Assembly: GCA_030583725.1 (NCBI GenBank)
Contig: CP129472.1
Coordinates: 142,958-206,957, forward strand
DNA: 64,000 bases
Direction: 5' to 3'
DNA from: a bacterium
Lineage (GTDB): Bacteria; Patescibacteriota; Microgenomatia; UBA8517
Part shown: piece after piece, positions 41,262-48,378 of the stretch
How the letters are laid out: each line of letters starts with the position of its first letter
Numbering within the stretch: the stretch's first letter is position 1
Notes under the pieces: model-generated
Databases searched by the model: none
What the model was told of the DNA's origin: nothing
What the model saw: the letters and a program-made list of their open reading frames with translations, nothing else
Program-made: the position numbers and the translations under genes

Positions 41262-41390
41262 CGCTAAACAGCGGGGTATGAAATTATGTTTCATACCTAA
41301 AGTCTCTGCGGGATTAGTTAAACAGTCTAACACCTCCTTCCCAAGGAGGAGAAACGAGTGCGACCCTCGTATCCCGCTCAAAATTAAATT
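41262..41390. ncRNA. GC-rich structured RNA candidate in a convergent intergenic gap
   Basis: 11-bp long-range helix AGCGGGGUAUG(41269-79)/CGUAUCCCGCU(41377-87) with two G-U pairs, competing 10-bp local hairpin GGUAUGAAAU/GUUUCAUACC, 7-bp CCUCCUU/AAGGAGG hairpin; strand unresolved. Confidence 0.3.
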
Positions 41391-42430
41391 TAGTCCGTAT
41401 CTTCGGACAATTCTAGTGATTTGATATCAGGCAGTGCCCTTCCTGTTACCCCTTGAAGATCTCCATACATCCCATGAGTATGGTCAATTACTTTTCTAAT
41501 TTCTTTTTCTTGCCTTGCCCATTTGCTACTAAACCACCTTTTTTCTTTTTCTATATCTTCTTGCATGGTTCCAAAGGCTTCTACGATTCCTTCTACTCTA
41601 TGTTTAAATTCATTTCCAGTCAAATACTCATACAACACCTTCATTTTTTCATCTACGTTGGTGGCGTTTTGTTTTTCATGATAGATATTCACAAGATTGA
41701 ATCGTAGAGACATGGCAAGAAGTGTAAAATTACTAATATTACAAACCCAAACCCCATCTTTAAAACCAACACCTTTATCTTTTAAGTCTTCTGGCAAATT
41801 AATTGAGACTAGGACTGCAAGGTCAGCCTTGGCCTGTCTTTGATCTTCTTTAAGTTTGGTAATCCAAGTATCACTCCATTTTGCATTTTTACTTTCCCAG
41901 ATTATGTTTCCGCAATTTCTGCCTAATTTATCAACTACGGTCTGGATTACATCAGCACCCCTAACACCTTTTTTAACTTCATTAATTTCATCATTAGGAA
42001 ATTCCTGTTTTAATTTAGTCTCAATTGTAAGTTCAAGTGTTTCTCCTTGTGTTTGTTGTGATCCTTGATTAGCTTTCTTTTGTGCTTCTTCAAGTGATTT
42101 TTTAAGGTCATTAATTAATTTTTCTTTTTCTACATCTTTTAACTGATGTTCTTCTGCAGCTTTTTTCCTAGCTTCACTTCTGATTGTGTCTTCACTCTCC
42201 ATTAGTTTCTTTTTCATCTCTACTTCTCTCATTTCATCTTTTTCACGCAGGGTTTTTATTTCATCAAGAAGTTTGCCCATATCTGACGTGAATTTTCTTC
42301 TAACTTCATCAACCTCATTTTGGGCTTTTTTACGTTCTTCTAAAATTATGGAGTCTTTAATATCATGGGCTAGTTGCTCAGCAACATCAATTATATTCCC
42401 ACATTTATTACATTTAACAGTATTTGCCAT
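41390..42430 (-). CDS. zinc-ribbon/coiled-coil protein with C-terminal PD-(D/E)xK-like nuclease motif (DUF2130-like), MGE-associated
   Basis: N-terminal 'CNKCGN', long Lys/Glu coiled coil, C-terminal 'GADVIQTV...GNIIWESKNAKW' (D...E-x-K). Confidence 0.5.
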   Translation of the reverse strand: MANTVKCNKCGNIIDVAEQLAHDIKDSIILEERKKAQNEVDEVRRKFTSDMGKLLDEIKTLREKDEMREVEMKKKLMESEDTIRSEARKKAAEEHQLKDVEKEKLINDLKKSLEEAQKKANQGSQQTQGETLELTIETKLKQEFPNDEINEVKKGVRGADVIQTVVDKLGRNCGNIIWESKNAKWSDTWITKLKEDQRQAKADLAVLVSINLPEDLKDKGVGFKDGVWVCNISNFTLLAMSLRFNLVNIYHEKQNATNVDEKMKVLYEYLTGNEFKHRVEGIVEAFGTMQEDIEKEKRWFSSKWARQEKEIRKVIDHTHGMYGDLQGVTGRALPDIKSLELSEDTD

Positions 42431-42433
42431 AGT

Positions 42434-43252
42434 TTATTTTTTGTTTTTCAATTTTAAATAATTTCTGCCAGTTACCACTTTTTGGTTTGTTTTTGATTCT
42501 AAGTCAAGCCTTGCTCGTTTCGCTATTCTACCACCTTTAACAGCAGGAATTTTATTCTCTTTAAAGCCAACTGCATTTTCTGCTTCTGAAATTTGCCTTG
42601 TTGAAAGTTCAGCTAAAGCAGTAAATATCAATTCAGCATCAGACATGTGATCTCTTAAATTTTGATTAGCCAGACCTTTTAGGTTTTTGTGCTCCCTAAC
42701 TGTCAAATCGCTCCACTCTTGATGGATGATGTTTGTTAATATTGCATATTCATTTTCCTTTTTAACCTTGTGATCCTTCCAGTAATCTGTCAACTTGTTT
42801 CGTATTTCCTGACCCATCATTCTCTGCTGTATCCATTTTTGGCTCCTACCCATTCTTTGCCAGTAGTCCCGAGCCCGGTTTAAAGACCTTTCAGGATCTG
42901 ACATATCTTGAATTCTTTGATGGCCTACTTTTGCCAGCCAAAGTTTAATCGGCTCGGCTTTTGGAGATGTAACAGACTGGATTAAACGAAACAAAGTTTC
43001 AACGTCAGCAGCATCAGTCAAGTATTTCTTGCCATCAGTTGAGATCATTTTCAGTTGTACGATTTTTTCGTACACCTTACTATTTTCCAACTTTAACTTA
43101 CGTTTTAGATCAGATAGATATCGTTTTGGAATACTGCTTTCAGTGAGCAAGCCAATTATATCCACTACAGAAAAAAACCATTTTTCTTGTTTTTCATCCC
43201 AATGCCTGCGAATATTTTTTCCTTTAAATATTACTAAATCCTTGGAGGTCAT
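42434..43252 (-). CDS. Bro-N domain protein (phage antirepressor/DinD-like)
   Basis: 'DLVIFKGKNIRRHWDEKQEKWFFSVVDIIGLLTES' Bro-N signature; start at MTSKDL. Confidence 0.55.
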   Translation of the reverse strand: MTSKDLVIFKGKNIRRHWDEKQEKWFFSVVDIIGLLTESSIPKRYLSDLKRKLKLENSKVYEKIVQLKMISTDGKKYLTDAADVETLFRLIQSVTSPKAEPIKLWLAKVGHQRIQDMSDPERSLNRARDYWQRMGRSQKWIQQRMMGQEIRNKLTDYWKDHKVKKENEYAILTNIIHQEWSDLTVREHKNLKGLANQNLRDHMSDAELIFTALAELSTRQISEAENAVGFKENKIPAVKGGRIAKRARLDLESKTNQKVVTGRNYLKLKNKK

Positions 43253-43325
43253 AATTAACAATAACCCCAAGATAATACGAAGTCAATATACATAATCTGT
43301 CAAAAACTATATAATTCCTATGTAC

Positions 43326-43398
43326 GCCGGGGTAACTCAGCTGGTAGAGTAGCTGTATCGTAAACAGCAAGTCGTGAGTTCGAATCTCACCCTCGGCT
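43326..43398 (+). tRNA. tRNA-Thr (anticodon CGU)
   Basis: GCCGGGG-TA-ACTC-AGCTGGTA-GAGT-A-GCTGT-ATCGTAA-ACAGC-AAGTC-GTGAG-TTCGAAT-CTCAC-CCTCGGC-T; all stems pair (one G-U in acceptor); CCA not encoded. Confidence 0.85.
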
Positions 43399-43402
43399 CA
43401 AA

Positions 43403-44762
43403 ATGCTTACAAAATCAGACTTTTTATTATTTTTAAAAGCTCCACTACATCTCTGGGCCAAGAAACACAAAAAATTAGACAAAAAGACCCCCTCTGCATA
43501 TGAACAACATTTAATGAAGCAAGGATATGATGTTGAAAAACTTGCAAGAAAACTATTACCTCACGCAGTTTGGCAAAAACCATATATTACTGATGAACTA
43601 GAAATCAGGCAGGATGCATTAATCAAGTTTGATGATGGTAGCGCTAATTTATATGAAGTTAAAAGCTCAACAGAAGTGAAAAAGGAACATTTGTTTGATT
43701 TAGCCTTTCAAGCAATTGCCACAGAAGAAAAGGTAAAACTTAAAAAAGTTTTCACGGTTACTATAAATAAGGATTATGTCAAAAAAGGTGAAATTGATGT
43801 TAACGCATTTTTTGTAATTACAGACTTAACAAAGCAAATTAGGGAATTAAAACCAGTAGTGCAAGAAAAGATTCTAGACGCCATAAATGTAGCAAATAAA
43901 GAAAGTAAAGACTATATAGAAAACTGCCTAAACCCCAAAACCTGCCCCTGTATTAATCTCTGCTATCCAAATCTACCGGAGAAATCAATTTTTAATATAC
44001 CCTACTTAAATTACAAAAAGAAAAGAGAGTTAGTAGATATGAAAATACTAGACATTACAAAAATTCCAGAGAGTATTGAGTTAAACGAAAAACAAAAAAG
44101 AGTAGTCACAGTAATTTCAAACAACAAGCCATACTTAAACAGTCAAAGATTAAAAGAGTTTTTAGATTCTTTTACATATCCAATTTACTTTTTAGACTAT
44201 GAAACATATTCACTAGCAATACCAATTTATAATAACTACAAGCCATATCAACACATGGTTTTTCAGTATTCACTGCACATAGTAAATAATGATGGAACAG
44301 TAACACATAAAGAGTATTTAGAAACTGAAACAGGAGACCCATCAAAAAATTTAATTAAAAAGTTAAAAAAAGACATAGGCCCAGTTGGCTCAGTCGTTTC
44401 ATGGAATAAACAGTTTGAATGTAGCAGAAATAACGATATGGCACTTCTCTACCCTGAATATAAAGAATTTTTAGAAGGTATTAATAATAGAATGATTGAC
44501 CTTGCTGATTTCATAAACAAAGAAATATATATTCACCCAGACTTTTTTAGGTAGCTGGTCTATCAAAAATGTTTTACCTGTCATGGTTCCTGAGCTTTCC
44601 TACAAAAAATTAAAAGTAAACAAAGGAGACCAAGCAATGTTAACTTGGTGGGAGATGGTAAATAGTAAAACGAAAAGTGAAGCAAAAGATCTCTTGGAAT
44701 ACTGTGCTCTCGATACCCTCGCCATGGTTAAAATTTGGGAAAAGCTAAAAACAATCTTATAA
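43403..44762 (+). pseudogene. Cas4/RecB-like PD-(D/E)xK nuclease fused to DEDDy-type 3'-5' exonuclease (DUF83-DUF2779 architecture), interrupted by a frameshift in a T6 run
   Basis: N-terminal 'DALIKFDD...LYEVKSS' + 'QAIA' + Cys cluster 'CLNPKTCPCINLC'; exo motifs 'FLDYETYS', 'SWNKQFE'; track ORF stops at TAG 44552 right after TTTTTT (44543-48); frame 0 continues '...MLTWWEMVNS...LLEYCALDTLAM' (Y-x3-D) to 44762. Confidence 0.5.
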
Positions 44763-44797: not shown

Positions 44798-45589
44798 TTA
44801 TGCATTTGCTACAGTTTGAGAAGCTCTGTGCTCTTTCTTGTGCACTCGTTTGATTTGATCTGTTAGTTTGACCAACTTTTCTCTAATATCCTTCAATTCT
44901 TTTAACCTTTTCTGTATATCTGCATTGCCAATGAGTGCAGCGTGCAATCCCGTAACCCTCTGGTTTGGTGCAGACCATCCGATGTATTTGCATATTTGCT
45001 GGTCAGTCATGTTAGAAAATAATCTTCCTCTAAGATACTGAATTACCGATCTATCATTTGCAGCATCCACATTGTGCTGATGGTGATTTGCTCTGACATT
45101 TTGGTAAAGAATACCTTCCATTTTCTCTCCTAATACGTAGGCTTTTCGAGTAAGCTGATAAAAATCGTTATATTTGTTTATAAGATCGTTGTCTGGGTAA
45201 TATGCATCGTGGTTGTTTATCTGGTCAAAGTTTGCTTGATATACATCAAACAATGGATTGATGTGTGACCCATCAAAATAGAATTTATTGAGGCCGCTCA
45301 AGTTCCAAACACTTGGACCTCTATCATAAGCTTCTTGGATATCGACCAATAGCCTACGTTCATAAAATGACTTTGCCCGAGACTTGCTTGCTTGATACTC
45401 ATTTGATTCCTGAAGATAGTAAAAGATTGCAGCAATAACACCCCCGACAATTCCACCTCCGACAATTTCAGATGTTAGGTTGTCTTTCAATGATTGACCC
45501 AAAGAAGAACATAAATTGATTGCAACTATAGCCAATATGCACAAAAGCGATATTGCCGCAATAAATTTCAATAATCTTTTTTGATCCAT
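44798..45589 (-). CDS. hypothetical membrane protein (two N-terminal TM helices, Gly-zipper 'GGGIVGGVIAAIF')
   Basis: 263 aa; co-directional with and immediately downstream of the R-M cassette. Confidence 0.4.
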   Translation of the reverse strand: MDQKRLLKFIAAISLLCILAIVAINLCSSLGQSLKDNLTSEIVGGGIVGGVIAAIFYYLQESNEYQASKSRAKSFYERRLLVDIQEAYDRGPSVWNLSGLNKFYFDGSHINPLFDVYQANFDQINNHDAYYPDNDLINKYNDFYQLTRKAYVLGEKMEGILYQNVRANHHQHNVDAANDRSVIQYLRGRLFSNMTDQQICKYIGWSAPNQRVTGLHAALIGNADIQKRLKELKDIREKLVKLTDQIKRVHKKEHRASQTVANA

Positions 45590-45600
45590 AGGTTACATTA

Positions 45601-46101
45601 TTATTTGTTATATAAAATATTTGAATTATTACAAACTAACTTTGTTATACTTATATTCCATGCTCGCATTGTTTTATGCCAATGTCTGAATTTTAGAAAT
45701 TGGTCCCATGTTAATTCAAGAATCAATTTTGGCATATAATTTTTGTCGATTTGAACAAGAATTAGATATTCGAATTTCTTTTCCGGAATTTCTACATCTC
45801 CAGGATTTCCCATGCCGTGAAATACACCTGTAGTTTTGTTCGGTTCAGACATCGTTTTTATACTATATCTGTCCCCATTATTACTAGTAGCGTCAATATT
45901 TTTTGTGCCCTTTTGAACTAGTTGTAATTTAGAATAATTTGGCTTTGAGTTGCAAATTGAAACAACCAAAAACTCACCTCTGTCACCTATTATATTATTA
46001 GTTCTAACTAAACCTCTTTTTCTTAATTCAGATACTGAATTTGCATATAACAACCAAAGTTCATCATTTGATACTGAATCTAGATCATCCATCTTTATCA
46101 A
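45601..46101 (-). CDS. small nuclease-fold-like hypothetical protein
   Basis: 166 aa; 'IGDRGEFLVVSI...LQLVQKGTKNIDA...RYSIKTM' loosely fits a PD-(D/E)xK/Hjc-Mrr-like core; 17-nt overlap with upstream gene. Confidence 0.3.
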   Translation of the reverse strand: MIKMDDLDSVSNDELWLLYANSVSELRKRGLVRTNNIIGDRGEFLVVSICNSKPNYSKLQLVQKGTKNIDATSNNGDRYSIKTMSEPNKTTGVFHGMGNPGDVEIPEKKFEYLILVQIDKNYMPKLILELTWDQFLKFRHWHKTMRAWNISITKLVCNNSNILYNK

Positions 46102-47125
46102 TTACAAGCAATGTAGATAATAAATTTTCTAGCCTTATGAAAAAGGTGTAAGGTGCAAGCAATGTATCCTCACCACCTCCACCACCACGGCTATTCGACC
46201 AGCTAACCCCAGTCAAAAAGTCACTCAGCAGGATTGAATCCCATTGCACAAATAATCTATCTTCGCGATTGTTAACTTGTCTTACATTATAAATTATAGG
46301 TATATTAATTTTATTTAGTAAATATAAATACCAAAGTATTCTTCTAGAATCCCAACCATATTGCCAACTTTGTAAATTAGTAGTGCCGTTTGATATCGGA
46401 GTTTTTTCTTTAATTTCTACAAGAAAAAGATTACTGTTTATAAAAACAAAACCGTCTAAATCTATTATTTGCCTGCCTTGTGCCTTTCGCATTACGACAT
46501 CTAAAAAATATCTCGTGGCATATATCTTTTGTAATATTTTAATATCATAGTTATTGAAATAATCAAATTGTTCTCTTTTTCTTAATGGGAATTTACGTAC
46601 TTTTTGTGTAGAAATAGAAAAACTGTTTAGGATAAAGTCAAAATTACCATTTTGGATAACATTGAATTTCCCACTCACCGCATTAAATAAATAAAAAGTA
46701 AATTTAGGCTTCAGTATATGATCTTGCGATCTTTCGGGTCGCTTACTTTTTTTTGTTTCAAATTGTTCAGTTTCCCAATCGTTTAAATTAATTTTTATAT
46801 ATAATAACTGTTTAATTTCCTCCCATGTAGACATTTTTTTATAAATATTGACGTAGTCAATTTCGTTGTCACTAGAGATTGTTGTGTAAATAAATGAGTT
46901 TTTGTCACGACTGTCACCCGATAACTTTTTTGATATAAGTTGTCCTCCTTCGAGAAACTTTGTATCAGATCTTGATTGCATAAGATTCTCAAATTCTACT
47001 TCAGCTTTAAAACCTAATACTCTTCGCTTAAAATAATCGTTGTTTGTAACCCTACTATCACTAACAGAGCTTGTCGATGAACACATTACTTTATACAAAC
47101 TTTCTATTATTTGGTTTTTAGTCAT
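46085..47125 (-). CDS. candidate type II restriction endonuclease (PD-(D/E)xK) of the M-C-R cassette
   Basis: 346 aa; 'IIDLDGFVFINSNLFLVEIKEK' = D-x(n)-E-x-K in correct spacing; sits 6 nt after the C-protein gene. Confidence 0.45.
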   Translation of the reverse strand: MTKNQIIESLYKVMCSSTSSVSDSRVTNNDYFKRRVLGFKAEVEFENLMQSRSDTKFLEGGQLISKKLSGDSRDKNSFIYTTISSDNEIDYVNIYKKMSTWEEIKQLLYIKINLNDWETEQFETKKSKRPERSQDHILKPKFTFYLFNAVSGKFNVIQNGNFDFILNSFSISTQKVRKFPLRKREQFDYFNNYDIKILQKIYATRYFLDVVMRKAQGRQIIDLDGFVFINSNLFLVEIKEKTPISNGTTNLQSWQYGWDSRRILWYLYLLNKINIPIIYNVRQVNNREDRLFVQWDSILLSDFLTGVSWSNSRGGGGGEDTLLAPYTFFIRLENLLSTLLVIDKDG

Positions 47126-47131
47126 ACAATT

Positions 47132-47356
47132 TTATAAAAAATGAGTAACCTTTGTTTTATATATTTTAGAGATTTGTTCAAGTTCAGTAATATCCAACCT
47201 ACGTTCACCTAATTCTATCTTGGAGATATAAGATTGAGGTTTACCTAATTTACTGGCAACATGTAATTGTGTCAAACCCAAACTAATTCTTAATTTTTTG
47301 AGTTTTTGTATAACCAACTTATATTTTTTTGTGTATATTAGATTAGACATGAACAA
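47132..47356 (-). CDS. HTH XRE-family controller (C) protein of restriction-modification system
   Basis: 74 aa; 'LRISLGLTQLHVASKLGKPQSYISKIELGERR' HTH_3; position between M and R genes. Confidence 0.7.
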   Translation of the reverse strand: MFMSNLIYTKKYKLVIQKLKKLRISLGLTQLHVASKLGKPQSYISKIELGERRLDITELEQISKIYKTKVTHFL

Positions 47357-47394: not shown

Positions 47395-48378
47395 TTATTT
47401 ATTGAAGAATTTTATGATATTTTTAGCAAGCGCTTTAATTACAGGTACTGCAACGCTATTGCCAAACTGTTTGTAAGCCTGCATGTCACTTACAGGGATA
47501 ATATAACTTTCTGGATAGCCTTGCAAGCGTGCGGCTTCTCTCGGTGTTATTTTCCTTGGATTTTTTCCTTTTTGTTCAATCAATATTTCTGAACCGTCCT
47601 TGTAATACCTTGCTGAAATTGTGCTTGTGTATTCAGATTCCTCATTAAACAATGAATATCCAAAACCATTTCCTTTTTCTCTGTGTTCTTTCTTTCTTCT
47701 TTGGTGACCAGCCCATAATTTATCGGAAATAGTATGTTTTGGATCAATTTCCTTATCTAAGATATTACCAAGTCTTGTTTTAGTTTTGGGCTCAATAGGA
47801 AATTTAAAATCTACATCCTCTTTAAATCCGATTATGTAGATTCTTGCTCTATTTTGAGGCAAACCAAAATCTTTTGCATTTAACACCTGATGAAAAACTT
47901 TATACCCCAGTTTTTCAAGGGTCCCTACAATAACTTTCAAAGTATTACCTTTGTCGTGCGTTCCCAAATTTCTTACGTTCTCAAGAAAAACAACCTTTGG
48001 TTTGTGATGTTCCACAATTCTAGCAATATCAAAAAAGAGTGTTCCTCTGATGTCTCCAAACCCTTTCTTTAAACCTGCCTGAGAAAATGGCTGGCAAGGA
48101 AAACCTGCGAGCAAAACATCAAACGGTGGTATTTCTTCTGCTTTAATTTTGGTTATATCACCATATGGGACTTCCCCAAAATTAGCACTATAAGTTTTTT
48201 GTGCATGACTATCCCATTCAGAGGAAAAAACACATTCACCATCAACACTTTCAAATCCTAATCTAATTCCACCAATACCTGCAAATAAGTCTATAAATTT
48301 AAATTTTCCTTTTTTCTCTTTTTTAGATGGATTACTAAACAAATCAGTTAAAATTATTGGTTGCTTAACGTTAGCCAT
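47395..48378 (-). CDS. DNA (cytosine-5)-methyltransferase
   Basis: 327 aa; motif I 'FIDLFAGIGGIRLGF', motif IV 'GFPCQPFSQAG', motif VI 'ENVRNL', C-terminal motif X. Confidence 0.9.
   Translation of the reverse strand: MANVKQPIILTDLFSNPSKKEKKGKFKFIDLFAGIGGIRLGFESVDGECVFSSEWDSHAQKTYSANFGEVPYGDITKIKAEEIPPFDVLLAGFPCQPFSQAGLKKGFGDIRGTLFFDIARIVEHHKPKVVFLENVRNLGTHDKGNTLKVIVGTLEKLGYKVFHQVLNAKDFGLPQNRARIYIIGFKEDVDFKFPIEPKTKTRLGNILDKEIDPKHTISDKLWAGHQRRKKEHREKGNGFGYSLFNEESEYTSTISARYYKDGSEILIEQKGKNPRKITPREAARLQGYPESYIIPVSDMQAYKQFGNSVAVPVIKALAKNIIKFFNK

Follow-up and report, generated by a model that had tools for sequence, protein, structure and literature searches.

A BisI-family nuclease and an orphan membrane protein in a putative composite restriction operon of a CPR bacterium

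Closest described systems

CPR bacteria rely heavily on restriction-modification (R-M)-type defence. Some Type I R-M operons carry embedded accessory genes for abortive infection, such as PrrC/RloC, Abi_2/HEPN and RhuM-type genes. Abortive infection is also the province of effectors with two transmembrane (TM) helices, among them the 2TM proteins of CBASS or Pycsar, those of the retron Ec48 type and RexB-like proteins. Members of the BisI family (BisI, Eco15I, NhoI, Bth171I, Bce1273I) are modification-dependent Type IIM restriction enzymes of 150-190 aa with a PvuII-like fold, an extra N-terminal dimerisation helix and an E...D...(Q/S)xK active site; many of their genes stand alone or are carried by mobile elements, and some lie beside a C5 methylase (PMC4926085; PMC11347163). 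Most BisI homologues have no companion C5 methyltransferase (MTase), and BisI is itself found together with C5 MTases that differ in specificity (PMC4926085). A methylation-based BREX system and a Type IV enzyme that share one defence island are documented to give complementary protection (PMC8565348).

We analysed a 64-kb stretch of DNA from an ultra-small CPR bacterium (the window), in which a minus-strand unit reads M - C - R (346 aa) - 163/166 aa - 263 aa (Table 1). We lean towards reading this unit as a composite restriction operon with one passenger, in which a BisI nuclease would add complementary restriction to the R-M system and the last gene would be a membrane-acting defence gene. 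The 163/166-aa nuclease shares the structural traits of the BisI family listed above and its homologues share the genomic settings. It differs from described members in sequence (about 20% identity to those crystallised, about 35% to those of the Bacillus branch), in having SIK where they have QIK or QVK, and in its setting in a CPR bacterium, where the gene forms part of an M-C-R operon and is translationally coupled. In the BREX and BrxU pairing on pEFER, unmodified and modified invaders are both restricted from one locus (PMC8565348), as we propose here. Unlike that pairing, the present nucleases apparently share one transcription unit behind a C protein, and the modification-dependent partner would be a small Type IIM enzyme, not a GmrSD Type IV enzyme.

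The 263-aa protein resembles the two-TM effectors in its predicted N-terminal TM hairpin followed by a cytoplasmic domain and in its defence-island setting, and its Gly-zipper TM helix is compatible with the formation of an oligomeric pore. It differs from them in showing no sequence or fold similarity, in a cytoplasmic domain that is predicted to adopt a novel all-helical fold, and in its partners: no cyclase or reverse transcriptase was found near family genes in the window or at 12 other loci, nor a RexA-like gene near the 263-aa gene. Like the PrrC/RloC, Abi_2/HEPN and RhuM-type genes, members of the 263-aa family sit inside restriction operons or form their last gene, with placement behind hsdR retained. 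However, the protein has no ATPase or anticodon-nuclease domain and, unlike the Type I accessories, it is membrane-anchored and its relatives occur behind Type II, Type III and OLD-like nucleases as well.

Layout of the operon

Table 1. Positions in the window of the genes of the unit and of its flank
Feature	Position	Strand	Remarks
C5 cytosine DNA methyltransferase, 327 aa	47395..48378	-	first gene of operon; Pfam DNA_methylase E=8e-111
Controller (C) protein, HTH_3, 74 aa	47132..47356	-	Pfam HTH_3 E=3e-13; PADLOC Control_protein
Putative cognate Type II restriction endonuclease, 346 aa	46085..47125	-	position behind C and D-x12-E-x-K motif
BisI-family PD-(D/E)XK restriction endonuclease, Type IIM candidate, 166 aa	45601..46101	-	PADLOC mREase_II; TTG start
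Orphan two-TM all-helical protein, 263 aa	44798..45589	-	last gene of operon; ATG start
DUF2779 / Cas4-like gene, split over two frames	43403..44762	+	context, outside operon
tRNA-Thr	43326..43399	+	ARAGORN; edge of variable block, context

The genes of the unit are tightly packed. A preliminary description placed two minus-strand ORFs behind the 346-aa ORF, the first (166 aa, from TTG) overlapping it by 17 nt and the second following after an 11-nt gap, which is correct for the starts in Table 1. The deposited annotation (P0017) and the alignment of homologues point to ATG 46092 as the likely start of the nuclease, giving 163 aa and an 8-nt overlap (ATGGATGA) with the stop of the upstream gene. 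Only 6 nt separate the C gene from the 346-aa gene. Scans for promoters and terminators stayed at chance level, and no terminator-like site was seen inside the operon. A Cas4-like DUF2779 gene had been described as a frameshifted neighbour in series with the two ORFs. It is indeed split over two frames (43403-44554 and 44583-44762), but it lies on the opposite strand and converges with the operon; its 383-aa ORF matches Pfam DUF2779 (E=4e-42), and the 59-aa ORF in the other frame has weak exonuclease-type matches.

In the upstream part of the unit, M and C are clear, and the gene after them encodes a putative R with a D-x12-EIK motif. The methylase matches M.HhaI over its full length (E=1e-78), and the motifs FAGIGG, PCQ, ENV, QxRxR and GNS are all intact in its translation. 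The target-recognition region aligns poorly, so that no specificity can be read from the M.HhaI match. Palindrome avoidance in the 64-kb window allows no assignment of specificity either: CATG and GATC are the most depleted, with GCGC and GGCC weakly so. The C protein also matches PADLOC Control_protein models (E=1e-7 to 1e-3). The 346-aa protein carries IDLDGFVFINSNLFLVEIK (D-x12-E-x-K, with EIK), and this motif, together with its place behind M and C, suggests that it is the cognate R. It was previously called a restriction endonuclease (REase), a label that its position and motif make plausible; searches of Pfam, PADLOC, NCBIfam, PHROGs, PDB and plasmids gave no family match.

Both downstream ORFs are real, conserved genes, but they do not form a conserved pair. 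The nuclease has at least 319 homologues and the membrane protein has 16 close homologues and 66 homologous clusters, with purifying selection in the membrane family (dN/dS 0.07-0.10). The two genes are adjacent in the present window only, and thus they do not constitute a single two-gene add-on system. The earlier suggestion of R-M plus accessory genes survives in the sense that each gene, separately, rides on R-M or nuclease loci.

The BisI-family nuclease

The 163/166-aa protein is a second restriction enzyme of the BisI family, with a PD-(D/E)XK fold. It matches the PADLOC mREase_II model PDLC03205 over its full length (E=2.3e-49), and three more mREase_II models match as well. Similarity to Eco15I is detectable with the single sequence (E=5e-4) and with a profile (E=4e-5, residues 5-161). 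The AlphaFold2 (AF2) model (pLDDT 90.8) has helices at residues 9-25 and 35-49 and, after them, a mixed sheet; in a Foldseek search of the PDB its top 11 matches are NhoI/Eco15I structures (E about 4e-10 at best, TM 0.60-0.64), and PvuII and DpnI come after them. Among canonical Type II enzymes, PvuII is the one most closely related to the BisI family (PMC11347163). At 163/166 aa in a single PvuII-like domain with an extra N-terminal helix, the protein has the size and architecture of a BisI-type enzyme of 150-190 aa. The preliminary description took it for an uncharacterised protein with a loose nuclease-fold pattern (GDRGEF, IDA, SIKTM), in a gene arrangement that matched no described add-on system. 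The pattern is present and corresponds to the catalytic residues E40, D67 and S77-x-K79, and the 'uncharacterised accessory' is now an ordinary member of a known family.

Catalytic E40, D67 and S77-I-K79 line up with the E, AD and QIK of Eco15I. They are invariant in 42 homologues and likewise in the plasmid homologues, with Ser in place of Gln (SIK) throughout this branch. A 164-aa homologue from B. thuringiensis (35% identity) keeps the catalytic E, D and SxK and is set among Tyr-recombinase, capsid and terminase genes, a prophage setting that has been described for Bth171I and Bce1273I (PMC4926085). Near the C-terminus of BisI-family enzymes, an (H/R)(V/I/T/M) dipeptide forms the pocket for the methyl group of the internal 5mC (PMC11347163). 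In the HMM alignment, T141-M142 of our nuclease stand opposite the H-V of Eco15I, flanked by K140 and R143-A144, a tentative placement; no exact copy of the dipeptide is seen, and the surrounding segment W138-H-K-T-M-R-A-W145 is invariant across the subfamily.

BisI-like genes have been appended to C5-methylase operons independently in Patescibacteria and on plasmids of Rhizobium and Sinorhizobium. On one Patescibacteria contig (L028) the order is M - R.HinP1I - BisI-like - Vsr. Its methylase is 32% identical to that of the window and the R genes are unrelated, whereas the nuclease is 57% identical. Plasmids of S. meliloti and R. etli carry CopG - M - hyp - Vsr - BisI-like. This recurrence agrees with a scheme in which unmodified and m5C-modified DNA are restricted by complementary enzymes. 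Solitary copies occur too: no MTase lies within 4-5 kb of four homologues (L027, at 56% identity, L024, L025 and L032). Such copies are expected for modification-dependent enzymes and support this property for the nuclease. The preliminary description had raised the question of whether homologues of the two ORFs co-occur with C5 MTases or REases. BisI-like genes recur in C5-methylase operons and the 263-aa family recurs behind four nuclease classes, but both also have solitary copies.

From these comparisons, the nuclease probably cuts methylated DNA. By analogy with characterised members of the family, which is typified by cleavage within GCNGC-type sites bearing 2-4 modified cytosines, it is most likely a homodimer that would cut short, GC-rich, GCNGC-like sites, and these only if several of their cytosines bear a 5-methyl or 5-hydroxymethyl group. 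We infer both its modification dependence and the logic of complementary restriction. The paired C5-methylase R-M system would need a specificity that does not overlap that of the nuclease, a compatibility that we assume. Phages whose cytosines are methylated or replaced, and which thereby evade the Type II enzyme, would then be met by the nuclease, and this escape route would be closed.

Alternatively, the nuclease could be a conventional, methylation-blocked Type IIP enzyme, that is, a second R from which the cell is protected by the adjacent C5 methylase. Its presence in C5-MTase operons (the window, L028 and the Rhizobium plasmids) and its PvuII-like fold agree with this idea, as does a methyl-pocket motif that is not clearly present, the aligned residues being K-T-M-R-A. 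There is also precedent within the family, as Bce1273I and Bth171I cut unmodified DNA at RGNCY/RSNSY sites, and Xu et al. speculated that enzymes of this kind might turn into Type II REases on acquiring a methylase (PMC4926085). However, another R candidate already sits between M and the BisI-like gene, both in the window and in L028. Homologues at 35-56% identity have no methylase nearby, an arrangement that would be lethal with a conventional REase, and the linked methylases differ (32% identity) while the nuclease is conserved at 57%. We therefore think a Type IIP enzyme unlikely and retain modification-dependent cleavage as our reading. The independent wiring of BisI-type enzymes into C5-methylase operons of distant lineages suggests that one mobile unit could restrict methylated and unmethylated DNA alike. 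Such a composite R-M and BisI strategy could be common in CPR bacteria.

The 263-aa membrane protein

The last gene of the operon is unrelated to the BisI-like nuclease. As first described, its product has two N-terminal TM helices, the second rich in Gly: Kyte-Doolittle peaks are centred at residues 12-25 and 47-51, and the all-helical AF2 model (pLDDT 86) places N-terminal helices at 3-27 and 32-60. The alignment of 16 family sequences has 40 invariant columns, and E41, G44/G46, D106, N111, E155, D/E158 and R166 are conserved. Remote-homology searches and structure prediction, which led from the nuclease to NhoI and Eco15I, gave no match for this protein. Pfam, NCBIfam, PADLOC and PHROG returned noise only, as did Pfam when run on 41 members of the family; in the PDB, sequence and profile searches alike picked up coiled-coil noise from the C-terminal helix; and the AF2 model has no fold match to any solved structure or known effector. 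We considered and rejected a HEPN reading, as R166-A-N-H169-H170 has 2-3 spacer residues in place of Rx4-6H and no HEPN structure appears among the Foldseek matches. With His residues less than 66% conserved in the 41-sequence family alignment, reading R..HH..D as a HEPN or HD-type motif was dropped as well.

The family is rare. It comprises 66 clusters among 1.84 billion representatives, with 2 loci in 185,579 GTDB species genomes and 4 in JGI metagenomes, and no member was found in the viral contigs, phage genomes or plasmids searched. A third, profile-based homology search gained one usable distant member. Our neighbourhood survey took in 13 loci, most of them close relatives found in CPR metagenomes. 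At six of them the gene lies directly behind a co-oriented defence nuclease gene: BisI-like (the window), HsdR (L012, L013 and L021), Type III Res (L019) and an OLD-like ATPase-TOPRIM (L004). Four nuclease classes thus precede family genes, though the three or four hsdR cases represent one lineage. At a seventh locus, an intact copy follows an hsdR remnant of about 40 codons. A defence neighbour is absent at about half of the 13 loci. Solo copies stand beside tRNA-Val and tRNA-Ala, others are near serine recombinases or IS elements, and two solo copies (L001 and L022) are set among housekeeping genes, the setting seen for the more distant member examined (P0169).

On this guilt by association, we propose the 263-aa protein as a candidate new phage-defence gene product that would be autonomous, mobile and membrane-acting. 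The family appears to move horizontally. Its gene has repeatedly come to rest at the end of a unit that encodes a restriction or defence nuclease, tightly coupled to the gene before it, and it also survives alone next to tRNA genes. The model suggests a two-TM hairpin with both termini inside the cell, a cytoplasmic helical domain bearing a conserved polar cluster, and a C-terminal coiled-coil helix; TM2 would combine a Gly zipper with a conserved Glu. We infer every part of the mechanism: the cytoplasmic domain would act as sensor and the TM hairpin would oligomerise and perturb the membrane, resulting in defence or exclusion. In a bolder version, to which we give little weight, the family would be an unrecognised class of membrane-acting anti-phage proteins, working by abortive infection or exclusion, with a novel fold in the cytoplasmic domain. 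CPR bacteria would have enlisted it time and again as a second line behind nucleases of Type I, II/IIM, III and OLD type, perhaps triggered once restriction has failed or been blocked. Should the protein prove active, it would add a fold not seen before and perhaps a 'restriction back-up' logic that is also new; otherwise it is one more island passenger.

The protein could instead be a dedicated accessory of the nuclease upstream, serving as a membrane tether that holds restriction enzymes where DNA enters the cell, or as a guard that triggers membrane damage once phage anti-restriction proteins inhibit the nuclease. The guard idea is modelled on the logic of PrrC or of retrons. Close coupling of the last gene, mostly with gaps of -4 to +11 nt, would be expected of such an accessory. 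The linkage to hsdR, moreover, is kept past saturation of synonymous sites (dS >1), and the family's rate of evolution is 4-5 times that of the linked hsdR, as in arms-race genes. Four unrelated nuclease architectures as partners argue against a specific protein-protein interface, however, and intact copies persist with an hsdR remnant, alone by tRNAs or by IS elements. We consider a dedicated accessory decidedly improbable. The preliminary description had likened the arrangement to an R-M system with an accessory effector or sensor; we found no evidence for either role in the membrane protein, and copies also occur alone.

A third reading is that the protein has no part in defence and is a lineage-restricted membrane protein, with a role in the envelope, in signalling or in the maintenance or exclusion of mobile elements, that resides in variable tRNA-proximal islands where defence genes collect. 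The solo copies amid housekeeping genes, the recombinases, IS elements and tRNAs nearby, the lack of any PADLOC model match and the absence from plasmid and phage collections are all consistent with it. Yet a shared island leaves unexplained why the gene occupies an adjacent, co-oriented and often overlapping place behind a nuclease, of four classes in all, at 6 of the 13 loci. The probability of this arrangement by chance is about 2e-5, a rough estimate that assumes 2% of genes to be such nucleases and about 9 independent contexts. A non-defence role is, in our judgement, possible but doubtful, and we keep the autonomous defence gene as the candidate.

Longer members of the family show no informative domain fusion, and one of them (P0185) was set aside as a spurious repeat protein. 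The extra C-terminal half of another (P0177) matches the upstream neighbour of the L006 copy at E=0.13 only, and paralogy of the 263-aa protein with the two membrane proteins upstream of L006 was rejected (hhalign probability <1%). The gene for the 263-aa protein is a single gene of 0.8 kb.

A divergent BisI-family nuclease

The smaller of the two genes encodes a new, divergent member of the BisI family. A Pfam search with the 166-aa protein gave only a sub-threshold match to DUF6998; its PADLOC matches are to four models named 'Type II methyl-directed restriction enzyme', of which the best covers the full length (E=2.3e-49). A PDB sequence search returned Eco15I (E=5e-4) and, more weakly, NhoI (E=0.14) as the sole meaningful matches, and a 42-sequence profile aligned with Eco15I over residues 5-161 (E=4e-5). 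The AF2 model built on the 42-sequence alignment is confident (pLDDT 90.8, pTM 0.84). NhoI and Eco15I chains are its top PDB matches (E down to 4e-10, TM 0.60-0.64), with PvuII and DpnI next. PvuII is the nearest canonical Type II relative of the BisI family (PMC11347163).

Three elements make up the BisI-family active site: a Glu carried by helix alpha1, the Asp from a degenerate 'PD', and QxK (PMC11347163). The equivalents here are E40, D67 and S77-I-K79. All are invariant in 42 CPR homologues and in plasmid homologues of Bacillus, Exiguobacterium and Sinorhizobium, and SxK is thus what this branch normally carries. The GDRGEF / IDA / SIKTM pattern, which the preliminary description had called a loose nuclease-fold pattern, coincides with this active site. 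A published feature of the family is an (H/R)(V/I/T/M) dipeptide that touches internal methyl groups (PMC11347163); the segment aligned with it is an invariant W-H-K-T-M-R-A-W in this branch, in which the dipeptide is not confidently placed. A B. thuringiensis homologue (164 aa, 35% identity) is flanked by a Tyr recombinase and by phage capsid, portal and terminase genes, a genomic context like that of Bth171I and Bce1273I, two characterised enzymes of 164 aa each (PMC4926085).

The earlier view of a nuclease-like gene riding on a restriction-modification (R-M) system is partly right: the gene encodes a restriction enzyme of a known kind. The coordinates, strand, gap and overlap first reported for both ORFs agree with ours, and neither is a chance ORF, since both have many homologues. 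In the deposited annotation the smaller gene begins at ATG 46092, which yields a 163-aa protein (P0017) and a ATGGATGA overlap with the upstream stop; this is a likelier start than that of the 166-aa form.

Layout of the restriction locus

The window is part of a contig of 841,695 bp from an uncultured bacterium of CPR/Patescibacteria type (MAG: bacterium QY322; locus tags QY322_01100 and QY322_01105). Five tightly packed minus-strand genes, from the methyltransferase to the 263-aa ORF, are joined in order by a 38-nt gap, a 6-nt gap, the overlap and an 11-nt gap. No terminator-like sites were found on the minus strand within this block (scan at chance level).

Features of the restriction locus and its surroundings (window coordinates)
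Feature	Position	Strand	Remark
FtsK-like protein, 306 aa	48484-49404	+	
C5 methyltransferase	47395-48378	-	
HTH controller protein	47132-47356	-	
346-aa ORF	46085-47125	-	
166-aa ORF	45601-46101	-	BisI-like
263-aa ORF	44798-45589	-	membrane protein
DUF2779/Cas4-like gene, 59-aa ORF	44583-44762	+	convergent with restriction block
DUF2779/Cas4-like gene, 383-aa ORF	43403-44554	+	convergent with restriction block
tRNA-Thr	43326-43399		
Bro-N domain protein	42434-43270	-	PADLOC phage-defence candidate PDC-S13, E=1.7e-115
DUF2130 protein	41390-42430	-	adjoins Bro-N gene
tRNA-Gly	41308-41379		

The two tRNA genes lie 1.4-3.5 kb from the five-gene block; together with the R-M block and the Bro-N and DUF2130 genes, they mark the region as a small tRNA-proximal defence island. 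Given the PDC-S13 match and the neighbouring DUF2130 gene, the island reaches past the R-M operon, with tRNA-Gly and tRNA-Thr interspersed. GC content is ~33% across the window, and composition does not break at the restriction locus. The DUF2779/Cas4-like gene, split between two frames, is consistent with a frameshifted UU173-type protein; its 59-aa piece has weak 3'-5' exonuclease / RNase H-like matches. The FtsK-like gene sits directly upstream of the methylase gene, in divergent orientation. Its unusual product has an N-terminal gamma (KOPS-binding) domain and an incomplete FtsK/SpoIIIE ATPase region, and may represent a fragment or what remains of a mobile-element translocase.

BisI-like genes and C5 methylases

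The assignment to the BisI family is firm, and the enzyme is likely to be modification dependent; two characterised family members cut unmodified DNA as well (PMC4926085). Close homologues with no methylase nearby are found on Exiguobacterium and Bacillus plasmids and at L027, a locus where the BisI-like gene has a GIY-YIG/helicase protein on one side and an AAA_15 ATPase on the other. Such methylase-free homologues are what would be expected of a modification-dependent enzyme. A companion C5 MTase is absent for most BisI homologues (Xu et al.; PMC4926085).

The composite of R-M and BisI genes recurs beyond the window. On the Patescibacteria contig L028 (3167-6995), a C5 methylase, an R.HinP1I-family REase, a BisI-like protein (57% identical to ours in the homologue alignment A2), Vsr and DUF4238 form one tight block, with gaps of 0-4 nt from methylase to Vsr. 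Because the methylases of the two operons are only 32% identical and their R genes unrelated, we regard them as independent assemblies. The gene order on plasmids of S. meliloti and R. etli is CopG - C5 methylase - hypothetical - Vsr - BisI-like, and in R. leguminosarum the BisI-like gene is divergent from a CopG - methylase pair. The BisI gene itself adjoins an inactive C5 methylase (PMC4926085).

The window methylase has every catalytic motif; its catalytic domain matches M.HhaI strongly, and its target-recognition region aligns poorly. Palindrome statistics in the 64-kb window identified no target for it. The most depleted 4-bp palindromes, CATG (103 observed, 163 expected, z=-5.6) and GATC (121 against 165, z=-4.1), hint at other restriction pressures in the genome, unrelated to the C5 system.

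The simplest reading of the operon would be complementary restriction by its two enzymes, a principle documented for BREX and BrxU (PMC8565348) that we infer may apply here. The Type II enzyme would cut unmodified DNA, and the BisI-type enzyme would cut DNA in which cytosines are methylated or replaced to evade the Type II enzyme. Host methylation would then have to avoid creating multiply methylated GCNGC-type sites.

The 263-aa membrane protein

The 263-aa protein is a rare, mobile and uncharacterised membrane protein with a striking propensity to follow restriction nucleases. Searches of Pfam, NCBIfam, PADLOC and PHROGs found no match to it, a Pfam scan of 41 family members returned nothing, and PDB sequence and profile searches gave only coiled-coil noise from the last helix. 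The family is small: a 5.8-billion-sequence set contains 16 of its proteins, and an exhaustive HMMER search across 1.84 billion representatives gave 66 clusters. Locus scans found it twice in 185,579 species genomes, and not in plasmids, phages or viral contigs. Nearly all full-length members are ~250-300 aa long and align to the profile over its whole length.

Forty positions are invariant across 16 close members, and dN/dS is 0.07-0.10 among closer pairs (Nei-Gojobori; dS near saturation). The best-kept positions in the 41-member set are E41, G44, G46, K69, R90, W95, F103-Y-F-D106, S108, N111, D115, E155, D/E158, R166, D179, Y185 and R236. HEPN and HD readings of R166/H169/H170/D179 were rejected on conservation and spacing. 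In the all-helical AF2 model (pLDDT 86, pTM 0.73), a pair of TM helices at the N-terminus precedes a cytoplasmic bundle, and the C-terminal helix spans 40 residues. Both this model and hydropathy show the hydrophobic helix pair and the Gly-rich stretch described previously. Charge distribution suggests an N-in/C-in topology. Foldseek found no credible match in PDB or BFVD.

Intact copies were recovered at 13 distinct loci. In six of these, the gene directly upstream on the same strand encodes a defence nuclease: the BisI-like enzyme in the window; Type I HsdR at L012, L013 and L021 (PF11867 E about 1e-132; PADLOC REase_I E<=1e-140); Type III Res at L019 (ResIII + RE_endonuc, called as two ORFs; PADLOC REase_III E=7e-75); and, at L004, an OLD/GajA-like ATPase-TOPRIM with a 4-nt overlap, then a serine recombinase and tRNA genes. 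All copies linked to hsdR belong to a single clade, which leaves four independent nuclease associations in ~9 independent contexts. If ~2% of genes are such nucleases, the probability of this by chance is, as a rough estimate, of the order of 1e-5. Within the clade, hsdR linkage is retained across synonymous-site saturation. The passenger evolves several-fold faster than the upstream subunit: at L012, L013 and L021, HsdR is 94-95% identical (dN/dS 0.012-0.018) and the downstream proteins 72-83% (dN/dS 0.07-0.10).

Elsewhere the partner is different or missing. At L008 and L009, all that survives of a Type I hsdR in the DNA ahead of an intact copy (L008:1-534, L009:1-202) is its last ~40 codons. 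At L001 the gene stands alone among housekeeping genes, with tRNA-Val and an HTH gene next to it; it is alone too at L022, where a 24%-identical member adjoins tRNA-Ala. It lies beside IS transposases at L010 and behind unrelated small or membrane proteins at L006 and L020; the 1.1-kb contig L017 has ~290 nt upstream, with no recognisable gene. None of the other loci surveyed has a BisI-like gene, so the BisI-like and 263-aa genes are not a conserved pair.

The variety of upstream partners and the persistence of copies without any partner disfavour a specific nuclease-binding accessory role; a nuclease-linked guard or tether is quite improbable. These neighbourhoods favour an autonomous function, merely co-expressed with restriction genes. 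The Gly-zipper TM helix with its conserved Glu, the coiled-coil tail and the conserved polar cluster in the cytoplasmic domain would fit either a sensor-plus-pore effector of abortive-infection type or an exclusion protein. The protein does not resemble known 2-TM effectors, and neither a cyclase nor an RT nor any other signal generator was found near family genes at the loci surveyed. We tentatively suggest an autonomous defence effector of abortive-infection type or an exclusion protein; that the gene is a non-defence island passenger seems rather unlikely. From its neighbourhoods in this small sample, the gene can reasonably be proposed as a new defence candidate.

Further upstream at L008 and L009, the DNA has many stops in translation and tRNA-like TΨC-arm strings (GGTTCGAATCC), in which ARAGORN calls no tRNA; it may represent island-boundary or att remnants. 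NUDIX hydrolase genes lie within 1-7 kb of the family gene at L001, L004, L006, L012 and L022, and adh_short genes just downstream at L006 and L022, a recurrence that may be mere CPR gene-content background. The distant member P0177 (500 aa) has an extra C-terminal half with a TM segment and a beta-rich domain. This half weakly resembles a separate 256-aa protein just upstream of the family gene at L006 (5226-5996; BLASTP E=0.13, 24% over 124 aa), a possible fusion/neighbour link.
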